Assembly (NCBI RefSeq): GCF_018977255.1
Contig: NW_024704752.1
Span: 9,300,001-9,364,000 of the forward strand
Direction: 5' to 3'
Length of the DNA: 64,000 nt
Source: Callorhinchus milii
Taxonomy: Eukaryota
Shown here: positions 23,072 through 62,352 of the stretch, piece after piece
How positions within the stretch are numbered: position 1 is the first letter of the stretch
Layout: every line of letters begins with the position of its first letter
Notes under the pieces: generated by a model
The model's database searches: none
What the model was told of the DNA's origin: nothing
What the model saw: the letters and a program-made list of their open reading frames with translations, nothing else
Position numbers and translations under genes: made by a program

Positions 23072-23125
23072 TTATTGTCCTGAGTCAGCATCATTCTTGT
23101 TGAGTGATGGCCTTTGAATGGATAT
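23072..23125 (-). CDS. MUC4: MUC4-like last coding exon (cytoplasmic tail end)
   Basis: cttctcttctag|ATA TCC ATT CAA AGG CCA...[23 protein letters not shown]. Confidence 0.8.
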   Translation of the reverse strand: MSIQRPSLNKNDADSGQ

Positions 23126-62100: not shown

Positions 62101-62352
62101 TCTGTGATCCAAAAGATGTGATACTTTGCAAGGTTGCTGCTCCAAAAGAAAAGTCGTCTGTACTTAAAATGTCAAAAATGCAATCATCATTTCCTTTGCA
62201 GGTTTCGTTCGCTTTGTTAATTTTCTCTTTATCTGTCGTATTCAACAGTTCATCGTAGAACTTGGGTACAAAGCTATTGTTGTTGTAGGTGTACCAGGTC
62301 TCCCCAGGATAACTGTTGTATGTGAACAGGGTGTTGTTCTCAGTCGTTTTCC
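23072..62352 (-). CDS. MUC4: Mucin-4-like transmembrane mucin locus; 5'-partial, 38 coding exons, duplicated MUC4 ectodomain module
   Basis: Phase-compatible GT-AG exon chain from 62352 to stop at 23072, with one +1 frameshift in the PTS repeat. Domains: NIDO (FTDNG...AAFWADAD), AMOP, VWD with GDPH, EGFs, [21 protein letters not shown] (human MUC4 CEHLSMKLDAFFGIFFGAL, from memory). Adjacent to TNK2 as in tetrapods. Joining the upstream and downstream modules into one gene is inference. Confidence 0.85.
23580..23872 (+). mobile_element. L2-type LINE 3' fragment
   Basis: acttcctctttgaccg...tttacggtcacc...ataaatgcaagttgttgttg tail. Confidence 0.65.
24086..24189 (-). CDS. MUC4: MUC4-like cytoplasmic tail exon
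   Basis: tttcag|TG ACT...GCA AAG|gtataa; [34 protein letters not shown], phase 1-0. Confidence 0.8.
24645..24697 (-). CDS. MUC4: MUC4-like cytoplasmic tail exon
   Basis: ctaacag|T ACT...CAC C|gtaagt; [17 protein letters not shown], phase 2-1. Confidence 0.78.
25393..25581 (-). CDS. MUC4: MUC4-like exon: EGF end and transmembrane helix
   Basis: [50 protein letters not shown]. Confidence 0.93.
25770..25938 (-). CDS. MUC4: MUC4-like juxtamembrane EGF exon
   Basis: [55 protein letters not shown]. Confidence 0.92.
26031..26233 (-). CDS. MUC4: MUC4-like SEA-like region exon with RSRR motif
   Basis: [67 protein letters not shown], phase 2-1. Confidence 0.9.
26873..26931 (-). CDS. MUC4: MUC4-like small exon (SEA-like region)
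   Basis: tcttag|GTC CTT AAA...TTC TG|gttggt; phase 0-2 bridges the flanking exons. Confidence 0.75.
27565..27930 (+). repeat. Unclassified repeat with internal ATTCAATGCAGCCGGTAAGTGCG-like subrepeats (copy 1)
   Basis: Colinear with the reverse complement of 34830-35165. Confidence 0.8.
28177..28286 (-). CDS. MUC4: MUC4-like exon (start of SEA-like region)
   Basis: [36 protein letters not shown]; tctcag acceptor, gtacag donor. Confidence 0.82.
28682..28870 (-). CDS. MUC4: MUC4-like EGF exon
   Basis: [63 protein letters not shown]. Confidence 0.9.
30059..30157 (-). CDS. MUC4: MUC4-like calcium-binding EGF exon
   Basis: [33 protein letters not shown]. Confidence 0.9.
30738..30900 (-). CDS. 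MUC4: MUC4-like EGF-like Cys-rich exon (module B)
   Basis: [54 protein letters not shown]. Confidence 0.9.
31010..31410 (+). mobile_element. Degenerate Deu-domain SINE
   Basis: gctgcattgtcgaggtgcc...gatgttaaacc...taaagatcctatggcactgtttgaa...tatatcaaataccaggattatt. Confidence 0.7.
32325..32628 (+). mobile_element. Full-length young tRNA-derived SINE
   Basis: gagtcctgtagctcagtggttagagcactcgctttgcaagcgagagacctgggttcgattcc ... (TTA)n. Confidence 0.93.
32856..33034 (-). CDS. MUC4: MUC4-like post-VWD exon (module B)
   Basis: [59 protein letters not shown]. Confidence 0.92.
33677..33805 (-). CDS. MUC4: MUC4-like post-VWD exon (module B)
   Basis: [42 protein letters not shown]. Confidence 0.87.
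34256..34495 (-). CDS. MUC4: MUC4-like post-VWD exon (module B)
   Basis: [10 protein letters not shown]...[12 protein letters not shown]...[23 protein letters not shown]...QNSTL. Confidence 0.92.
34830..35165 (-). repeat. Same unclassified repeat (copy 2, inverted)
   Basis: Reverse complement shares catttaatatgactta, gcaggcaaa, taatcaataatc, catgggtaattcaatgca, cacacttacc.gcaagcattgga.tcgcattgaatcg, ggatcaaaact with copy 1. Confidence 0.8.
35333..35718 (+). mobile_element. Near full-length older Deu-domain SINE (SacSINE/AmnSINE-like)
   Basis: tRNA head tggctcagttggta...ggttcaagccc; Deu-like core gcattgtcagaggtgccgtc...gacgttaaac...taaagat..atggtactatttgaaaagagcagggag; L2-like tail. Confidence 0.8.
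36413..36514 (-). CDS. MUC4: MUC4-like VWD C-terminal exon
   Basis: [34 protein letters not shown]. Confidence 0.92.
36732..36911 (-). CDS. MUC4: MUC4-like VWD exon
   Basis: ...[39 protein letters not shown]. Confidence 0.9.
37258..37339 (-). CDS. MUC4: MUC4-like VWD exon
   Basis: [27 protein letters not shown]. Confidence 0.87.
37751..37959 (-). CDS. MUC4: MUC4-like VWD first exon with GDPH autocleavage motif (37937-37948)
   Basis: [31 protein letters not shown]...[23 protein letters not shown]. Confidence 0.95.
38390..38546 (+). repeat. Unclassified interspersed repeat (copy 2)
   Basis: Homologous to 1-148 in the same orientation. Confidence 0.7.
38782..39302 (+). mobile_element. CR1-type LINE 3' end with an inverted CR1 3' fragment nested at ~39025-39183
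   Basis: ccagaggacacaaatttaagata...tctggaatgcactgcctgaaagggtggtg...tgggctgaatggcctcct; insert ggagtaggccattcagcccctcgagcctg. Confidence 0.85.
39303..39619 (-). mobile_element. Full-length young tRNA-derived SINE
   Basis: Reverse complement of the 32325-32628 family. Confidence 0.93.
39935..40054 (-). CDS. MUC4: MUC4-like AMOP C-terminal exon
   Basis: [39 protein letters not shown]. Confidence 0.92.
40191..40343 (-). CDS. MUC4: MUC4-like AMOP exon
   Basis: [50 protein letters not shown]. Confidence 0.87.
40668..41200 (-). mobile_element. L2-type LINE 3' fragment
   Basis: acaacttgtatttatatagc...cccaaagcgcttgacag tail; gagtgttccagagt, gcagagttttggatcagctg RT-end motifs. Confidence 0.75.
41786..41968 (-). 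CDS. MUC4: MUC4-like NIDO end / AMOP start exon
   Basis: LKGLWAYKL...[39 protein letters not shown]. Confidence 0.92.
42213..42301 (-). CDS. MUC4: MUC4-like NIDO exon
   Basis: [29 protein letters not shown]. Confidence 0.88.
43510..43640 (-). CDS. MUC4: MUC4-like NIDO exon
   Basis: [43 protein letters not shown]. Confidence 0.92.
44663..44818 (-). CDS. MUC4: MUC4-like NIDO exon
   Basis: [52 protein letters not shown]. Confidence 0.92.
45000..45620 (-). mobile_element. Degenerate CR1-type LINE fragment
   Basis: ataattttgaacacctcaatcaggtcccctctca...gaattgcacacagtattcta. Confidence 0.65.
45922..46083 (-). CDS. MUC4: MUC4-like NIDO exon
   Basis: [10 protein letters not shown]...[36 protein letters not shown]. 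Confidence 0.93.
46479..46612 (-). CDS. MUC4: MUC4-like pre-NIDO exon
   Basis: [44 protein letters not shown]. Confidence 0.92.
47894..49424 (-). CDS. MUC4: Mucin PTS tandem-repeat exon (~510 aa) with a +1 frameshift near 48757
   Basis: gtttag|GA AAT TTG ACC acceptor; Thr-rich ORFs 48550-49464 and 47823-48902 join after removing one base. Donor is GGA T|gtaaga (47894) or CCA A|gtacct (47912), both phase 1. Confidence 0.85.
47936..49100. repeat. 21-bp coding minisatellite (~55 units), + strand consensus GCAGTGGTTTTGCTGGTGCCT
   Basis: Directly visible; encodes TTAGT(S/T/I)(K/E) heptads on the - strand. Confidence 0.97.
49110..49350. repeat. 30-33-bp degenerate coding repeat ([14 protein letters not shown])
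   Basis: Repeated GTTGTTGCTGTTGTGGGTGAAGAGCT-like units, ~7 copies. Confidence 0.85.
50237..50354 (-). pseudogene. Decayed cbEGF pseudo-exon
   Basis: [27 protein letters not shown](frameshift)[10 protein letters not shown]; first Cys changed to Tyr, acceptor AG reads GG, donor lost. Confidence 0.8.
51022..51122 (-). other. Truncated cbEGF exon copy: pseudo-exon or alternative terminal exon
   Basis: Intact acceptor ctttcag|[46 protein letters not shown] then TAA; donor deleted; AATAAA(-) at 50931-50936. Confidence 0.75.
51330..51648 (-). mobile_element. Full-length young tRNA-derived SINE
   Basis: Same family as 32325-32628. Confidence 0.93.
51811..51939 (-). CDS. cbEGF exon (8th of array)
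   Basis: [43 protein letters not shown], phase 1-1. Confidence 0.92.
52193..52315 (-). CDS. cbEGF exon (7th)
   Basis: [41 protein letters not shown]. Confidence 0.9.
53068..53190 (-). CDS. cbEGF exon (6th)
   Basis: [41 protein letters not shown]. Confidence 0.92.
53546..53785 (-). CDS. Double cbEGF exon (4th and 5th)
   Basis: [12 protein letters not shown]...[20 protein letters not shown]...[10 protein letters not shown]. Confidence 0.93.
54823..54942 (-). CDS. cbEGF exon (3rd)
   Basis: [40 protein letters not shown]. Confidence 0.92.
55948..56070 (-). CDS. cbEGF exon (2nd)
   Basis: [41 protein letters not shown]. Confidence 0.92.
56617..56729 (-). mobile_element. SINE 3' tail fragment
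   Basis: (TAA)n tccttgcatttgatatagcgcttttcacgtc...gactgtacatttgtgggc. Confidence 0.85.
56935..57380 (-). mobile_element. Degenerate CR1-type LINE fragment
   Basis: gcctctaccact...ccctctacctaaagaaaaactt...ttttatacacctctgtaagg...ctctacactgcactgcctctagg. Confidence 0.6.
57978..58103 (-). CDS. cbEGF exon (1st)
   Basis: [42 protein letters not shown]. Confidence 0.92.
58916..59096 (-). CDS. MUC4-type EGF-like Cys-rich exon (module A)
   Basis: [60 protein letters not shown]; paralogous to 30738-30900. Confidence 0.92.
59345..59490 (+). mobile_element. CR1 RT fragment
   Basis: Translates [23 protein letters not shown], matching the CR1 [19 protein letters not shown] motif. Confidence 0.75.
59684..59868 (-). 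CDS. MUC4-type post-VWD exon (module A)
   Basis: [47 protein letters not shown]...; paralogous to 32856-33034. Confidence 0.92.
61350..61496 (-). CDS. MUC4-type post-VWD exon (module A)
   Basis: [48 protein letters not shown]; paralogous to 33677-33805. Confidence 0.88.
62089..62352 (-). CDS. MUC4-type post-VWD exon (module A)
   Basis: [11 protein letters not shown]...[11 protein letters not shown]...[23 protein letters not shown]...QNSTM; paralogous to 34256-34495. Confidence 0.9.

Follow-up and report, generated by a model that had tools for sequence, protein, structure and literature searches.

A two-module mucin-4 gene in the chimaera Callorhinchus milii that is expressed, old and conserved

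MUC4 of mammals and birds carries a single NIDO-AMOP-VWD unit with one GDPH motif. PMC10880436 describes GDPH as an autocatalytic site in the beta1-beta2 turn of the VWD domain, at which a protein lacking a disulfide could fragment, and calls the role of the NIDO-AMOP-VWD unit and of its cleavage unresolved. According to PMC8660890 and PMC1552070, MUC4 is putatively cleaved at GDPH and its VWD is cysteine-free, and in PMC4948705 Xenopus tropicalis is given as the most deeply branching animal in which a Muc4-like protein occurs. The DNA considered here, termed the window, is a stretch of 64,000 nucleotides from the 991-Mb genome of the chimaera Callorhinchus milii (RefSeq assembly GCF_018977255.1, contig NW_024704752.1, positions 9,300,001 to 9,364,000), and the MUC4 gene on its minus strand has two NIDO-AMOP-VWD units and two GDPH sites, in contrast to the one of each in mammals and birds. 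This two-module MUC4, in which a front module A is followed by a module B, is real, expressed, old and conserved, and its product is probably a single membrane mucin of type I, about 5,600 residues long. Database proteins that match the window at 99-100% are from this species. Coordinates follow the numbering of the window (1 being contig position 9,300,001), with numbers above 64,000 continuing upstream.

Evidence that both modules belong to one transcript comes from four sequencing runs (X1-X4), mapped on 49347-64000 in the form of assembled short contigs, X1-X3, none of which is registered as RNA, being taken as RNA from their exact spliced joints and X4 being DNA-like. All 11 introns of the gene model in this interval are present as spliced joints in X1. 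The joint that matters most, 51811-49439, connects the last of eight calcium-binding EGF (cbEGF) domains behind module A to the internal PTS exon ahead of module B; it occurs in X1, X2 and X3, from two studies, at depths of 295, 117 and 3.2, is absent from DNA-like X4, and bypasses both of the decayed cbEGF exons in the intron. An 825-nucleotide contig of X2 bears three cbEGF exons at the depth listed for this joint. The original prediction had proposed this splice with an acceptor at 49424; the connection itself stands, while the listed joint uses 49439, so that 49424 is rejected, and the exon as assembled is frameshifted. Upstream, 13 letters that hang loose at 62352 agree with the adjoining exon at 64,203, and downstream the junction from the PTS exon to module B (47894-46612) is canonical, in phase and present in both C. 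milii RefSeq models. The full NIDO-AMOP-VWD-EGF-transmembrane unit expected behind the PTS exon could be traced exon by exon to the stop codon, with EGF domains, a single transmembrane segment and a cytoplasmic tail in exons 30900-23072. The second NIDO-AMOP-VWD unit with GDPH was found just beyond the window, where the NIDO of module A begins at 76,083, AMOP comes next and the GDPH motif of the VWD lies in exon 67,384-67,173. With the spliced joint from A to PTS, this supports the prediction of one gene with two GDPH sites.

The two modules are paralogous exon for exon. The four pairs recognised originally within the window (62352-62089/34495-34256, 61496-61350/33805-33677, 59868-59684/33034-32856 and 59096-58916/30900-30738, with phases 1-1, 1-1, 1-0 and 0-1) hold, and the correspondence extends to the whole unit, with identical phases in 17/17 exon pairs, AG/GT ends on all 34 exons and identity at 324 of the 815 aligned residues (40%). 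A PTS region stands ahead of each NIDO, consisting of one Thr/Ser-rich exon of 515 codons for module B and of 59 small exons for module A. Between the modules, the predicted run of eight cbEGF domains is encoded by seven exons; every domain (8/8) fits the calcium-binding consensus and all linkers (7/7) are of the one-residue Cys-x type. Pairs of cbEGF domains joined by one-residue linkers, as in fibrillin, are rigid. Module A lacks a separate tail or stop, and in agreement with the initial reading a tblastn search between 47,000 and 59,000 found no SEA-like or transmembrane exon (best E 2.2).

The architecture is shared with other jawed vertebrates. Among 295 collected proteins, 23 have module A followed by module B. 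They represent 12 species: on the cartilaginous side C. milii itself with white shark, zebra shark and sawfish, and on the amphibian side newt plus seven frogs, X. tropicalis among them. These doubles have the layout seen in C. milii, with module A, cbEGF array, PTS, module B and tail; both GDPH motifs are kept in 12/12 (24/24 sites), 5-10 cbEGF domains separate the modules, and PTS-like sequence lies between them in 11/12, being short in two. The main listing covered 120 of the 171 proteins found, with lengths of 1,191-3,791 only, and among these 120 all 34 named bird and mammal proteins have one B-type module with no cbEGF ahead. The C. milii modules are 74-79% (A) and 54-56% (B) identical to those of sharks and rays, and 56-58% (A) and 41-43% (B) identical to those of amphibians; module A is thus the more conserved and is not decaying. 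The novelty implied originally is weakened by this survey, and at database level it is lost by the standard that the original prediction had set: the double is already present in the C. milii RefSeq models and in 11 other cartilaginous fishes and amphibians, and the duplication is old and not peculiar to this genome. Four other multi-module proteins, one of them from a brachiopod, are not of the A-then-B kind. The collection also contained a third family, mostly named 'fibrillin-like', with 12-30 cbEGF domains before a NIDO-VWD without GDPH (gar, paddlefish, teleosts and amphibians), and one protein of 7,101 residues with ten VWD modules and GDPH in each.

The domain phylogeny that the original prediction had proposed was built in three versions, two of them quick trees under mixture models (with 62 and 28 rows) and one a careful LG+G4 tree of 18 rows picked for taxon spread, with hemichordate and amphioxus as outgroup. 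The three are concordant: module A of jawed vertebrates forms one clade (100/99) and module B another together with bird and mammal MUC4 (100/100). Approximately unbiased (AU) tests reject both a lineage-specific duplication that would make the C. milii modules sisters (p 0.00026) and a placement of amniote MUC4 within A (p 1.5e-63). By these trees, the divergence of A and B is placed before the split of sharks and amphibians. Lamprey proteins group with A (99/97), and the A/B split may thus predate jawed vertebrates. Bird and mammal MUC4 probably derive from the rear half of the double, that is, internal PTS, module B and tail. It is also reasonably probable that the ancestral jawed-vertebrate MUC4 was two-storeyed, with two self-cleavage release points, that cartilaginous fishes and amphibians have kept this form for more than 400 million years, and that human MUC4 corresponds to its rear half, the N-terminal PTS being the old internal linker.

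An alternative history, in which separate tandem A and B genes were fused independently in cartilaginous fishes and in amphibians and amniote MUC4 comes from a B gene that was never fused, is unlikely. It can draw on genes consisting of module A plus tail, one of which adjoins the zebra shark double (their contigs being equal in length) and others of which occur in other sharks, caecilians, frogs and cyclostomes, on single B models in sturgeon, paddlefish, caecilian and frogs, and on the position of the lampreys, by which the A/B split may predate the fusion. However, the order of module A, cbEGF array, PTS and module B is identical in all 12 doubles, and a single origin is simpler than two. 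Moreover, in basking shark, smooth-hound, Xenopus laevis and coelacanth the models with module B alone start with cbEGF domains followed by PTS, and from this arrangement they look like cut doubles.

Very improbable is a second alternative, that there are two genes in C. milii itself, module B being served by a separate promoter and signal exon, and the joint 51811-49439 being minor read-through from an upstream secreted gene. One Ensembl-type model does contain module B alone, transcript starts are invisible in contigs, and the depth of X2 contigs along module A varies from 3.5 to 117. Yet the joint is as deep as the neighbouring junctions (117 vs 117 in X2, 295 vs 296 in X1), module A ends without a tail or stop, and the fusion is modelled in all 12 species. 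No signal-peptide-like exon appeared in a scan of 49440-51810 either, matching the earlier statement that none lies in 49430-51800.

The single-gene reading has to account for two defects in the assembled PTS exon. At the acceptor in use, 49439, the window reads AA, and X4 reads a base that gives AG. The exon 49439-47894 is 1546 nucleotides long (3n+1) owing to an extra base in one repeat unit near 48762, so that the assembled frame stops inside the exon, at codon 296; minus this base, the exon has 515 codons, 40% of them Thr and 10% Ser. The shifted repeat unit occurs once, against 23 normal copies, and both defects fall in or next to short single-base runs. Of the two C. milii models, the one built on the earlier assembly takes 49439 as its acceptor and keeps one frame through the PTS, and the newer one includes a stretch read in the wrong frame. 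The AA acceptor and the frameshift are thus likely assembly errors. That the window allele is truly broken, so that the protein is truncated within the PTS exon and module A becomes a secreted mucin without membrane anchor, is the least probable alternative, as both defects do stand in the assembly, the newer model skirts them by its wrong-frame stretch and further X4 contigs at 49440 are ambiguous, but the restored AG, the single frame of the earlier model, the single-base runs, the solitary shifted unit and the wholly intact module B exons speak against it. The decay of the two cbEGF exons in the preceding intron, which correspond by homology to cbEGF domains 9 and 10 in the white shark (the first one aligned), looks real, since X4 spans 50183-51355 with one differing letter and a 2-base gap, neither within these exons. 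The inter-module array has 10 cbEGF domains in three sharks and rays, against the 8 used in C. milii.

The front of the gene lies outside the window, and its candidate exons, all phase-compatible, were placed from sequence alone. The better of two candidate signal-peptide exons in 118,000-148,800 is 127,149-127,062 (contig 9,427,149-9,427,062), with a phase 1 donor; a tblastn search with the bamboo shark signal region as query found no match upstream. The outer PTS comprises 59 Thr/Ser-rich exons, nearly all of 105-108 nucleotides, at 121,761-90,830, with about 2,100 codons; a 60th candidate at 133,316 was dropped because it was unlike the others. Module A is further preceded by two FN3 exons (Pfam E 5.5e-9 for one; E 1.5e-4, below the cut-off, for the other) and nine EGF exons (88,531-78,325). 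The summed protein reaches about 5,600 residues, and both C. milii RefSeq models lack the upstream part, as they begin inside module A and contain none of the preceding exons for signal peptide, outer PTS, FN3 and EGF. The two PTS regions differ in build, the outer (contig 9,390,830-9,421,761) having at least 59 small exons in higher-order repeats and the inner being one exon.

Still further upstream, on the minus strand at contig 9,448,900-9,487,050, there are 102 cbEGF exons with AG/GT ends, phase 1-1, a median spacing of 371 bases and 35 distinct peptides, and no tail was found after this array. That the intact array splices into the MUC4 gene, to give a protein near 10,000 residues, is doubtful, and it may instead be part of a neighbouring mucin. 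At contig 9,487,000-9,510,000, small PTS-like exons on both strands point away from a 25-base scaffold gap, and a frameshifted EGF-transmembrane tail resembling that of MUC4 lies on the plus strand near 9,509,600; the region around the gap is an inverted duplicate or a mis-oriented contig. An unplaced contig of 27.6 kb holds another A-like NIDO-AMOP-VWD module, whose best exon is about 50% identical to module A, and has no DNA-level match to the examined region of the main contig.

The domain assignments rest on several sources. Pfam recognised NIDO, VWD (two stretches), C8-3_MUC4 (two stretches) and EGF_CA on the species' own model; AMOP was assigned through similarity to shark proteins, Pfam listing no AMOP match on the own model. 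Predicted models of shark orthologues have VWD folds, with a cadherin- or Ig-like sandwich following the C8 domain (Z about 8, weak). In the bamboo shark orthologue, residues 643-766, which precede the membrane, match SEA folds (TMPRSS6 SEA, Z 10.8, root-mean-square deviation 2.5 over 119 aligned residues; 1ivz, Z 10.0; 2e7v, Z 9.1). Pfam gave no SEA match on the C. milii model, and Foldseek, run with two models, gave hits to VWD and EGF structures, with no SEA entry among the matches listed.

From this layout, a mechanism may be proposed. The chain would run from signal peptide, multi-exon PTS, two FN3 and nine EGF domains through NIDO-AMOP-VWD A, eight cbEGF domains, PTS and NIDO-AMOP-VWD B to EGF, SEA-like domain, EGF, transmembrane segment and tail. 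Both C. milii modules have GDPH with 0 cysteines in the next 190 residues, and the same holds at 23/24 sites across the 12 doubles. Among PDB sequences, FCGBP is the one that best matches the GDPH exon of module B; in FCGBP a cysteine stands four residues before GDPH, and modules A and B lack it. Going by the conserved motif, self-cleavage at the two GDPH sites would yield three chains, the middle one, of about 1,660 residues, comprising VWD-A, the cbEGF array, PTS and the NIDO-AMOP of B. As both VWDs are without the cysteine by which FCGBP keeps its first strand tethered, the chains are likely held non-covalently. The distal site would then be a release point for the outer PTS and the head of module A, and the proximal site one for everything above the membrane subunit, with the cbEGF array serving as a spacer stiffened by calcium and the PTS segments forming O-glycosylated brushes.

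Several points weigh against the picture of one two-module, twice-cleaved mucin. The read support covers 49347-64000, and the 47894-46612 junction, the frameshift and the junctions upstream of 64203 lie outside it; the joints used are among those listed, 1,498 further joints existing beyond them, and with short contigs no single molecule covers both modules. The window copy as assembled has both the AA acceptor and the frameshift. The doubles of other species are automatic gene models. Among the 120 listed of 171 proteins, all 8 from lampreys and hagfish have a single A-like module, and non-avian reptiles are represented by none; together with the A-plus-tail genes of sharks, amphibians and cyclostomes, the single-module cyclostomes leave the order of fusion and loss not fixed. 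As for the mechanism, cleavage, glycosylation and rigidity are predicted from sequence, the structural model is poor at the strand before GDPH (predicted local distance difference test score, pLDDT, <50 at 166-178), and the fragments of SUSD2 are reported as disulfide-linked in PMC6696261, so that cysteines outside the VWD could tether the chains.

Table 1. Exons and domains of the C. milii MUC4 gene, listed in the direction of transcription
Feature	Position	Strand	Basis
Module A, 12 earlier exons: NIDO, AMOP, VWD with GDPH	contig 9,364,203-9,376,083, beyond window	-	
Module A, last four core exons: end of VWD with C8-like domain, beta-sandwich domain, EGF	58916..62352	-	spliced joints and exon alignment
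Eight cbEGF domains in seven phase 1-1 exons	51811..58103	-	all junctions seen as spliced joints
Individual cbEGF exons	58103-57978, 56070-55948, 54942-54823, 53785-53546 (two domains), 53190-53068, 52315-52193, 51939-51811	-	
Decayed cbEGF exon with in-frame stop	50990..51122 (about)	-	homologous to intact white shark domain
Second decayed cbEGF exon: no AG acceptor, cysteines lost, frame broken	50240..50355 (about)	-	
Internal PTS exon, 21-nucleotide tandem repeat, 56 copies	47894..49439	-	
Module B, NIDO and AMOP, eight exons	39935..46612	-	
Module B, VWD exons; GDPH in exon 37959-37751	36413..37959	-	
Module B, C8-like, beta-sandwich, EGF and cbEGF exons	30059..34495	-	
EGF, SEA-like domain and juxtamembrane EGF exons	25770..28870	-	SEA fold from bamboo shark orthologue
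Transmembrane exon 25581-25393 and cytoplasmic tail exons; stop codon ends at 23072	23072..25581	-	

Convergent with the mucin gene, a gene for a TNK2/ACK1-like tyrosine kinase, in which Pfam recognises the kinase and Mig-6 domains, occupies 2156-16500 of the plus strand; TNK2 is the neighbour of MUC4 in mammals, including human. Pfam assigned no family to two upstream open reading frames that are putatively LRCH3-like and RUBCN-like.

The two-module MUC4 is annotated in public gene models but apparently unremarked. The open full-text literature gave no description of it, with Lang 2007, Chaturvedi 2008, Duraisamy 2006 and one supplement of PMC4948705 not covered, and an earlier mention is thus possible; PMC1618406 and PMC9578598 add nothing on such an architecture, and a term search of a shark skin proteomics study (PMC10707392) found no mention of mucin-4. 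Interest is limited in that joined models are already public and no new biochemistry is involved. Nonetheless, the gene would change the evolutionary account of a cancer mucin that has been studied extensively, as an orthologue twice as complex is expressed in a cartilaginous fish, in contrast to the published depth of X. tropicalis. Module A, probably lost in birds and mammals, more conserved than B and equipped with its own GDPH, offers a natural comparison for the function of the NIDO-AMOP-VWD unit and its cleavage, testable in Xenopus.

Set beside the known systems, module B plus tail is the counterpart of mammalian and avian MUC4, being orthologous (100/100) and having in common the GDPH in a cysteine-free VWD, the C8-3_MUC4 domain and the TNK2-like neighbour, whereas the chimaera adds an older-looking module A, FN3, EGF, the cbEGF array and a second, multi-exon PTS in front. 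The C. milii RefSeq proteins named 'mucin-4' (XP_007898813.1 and XP_042195169.1) are the same gene, with module A, cbEGF array, PTS, module B and tail already joined; in the newer one, part of the PTS exon is read out of frame and one AMOP exon is left out. Sharks, caecilians, frogs, lampreys and hagfish have single genes of A type ('mucin-4-like') that share the PTS-FN3-EGF-NIDO-AMOP-VWD-cbEGF front end, the bamboo shark protein aligning exon by exon with module A plus tail. In these genes module B is absent, and the cbEGF array leads directly, in some cases by way of a PTS, into the SEA-like tail. FCGBP resembles the chimaera protein in carrying several autocatalytic GDPH sites per chain, but differs in being secreted and built of VWD-C8-TIL assemblies whose fragments are disulfide-tethered, without NIDO, AMOP, PTS or transmembrane segment.

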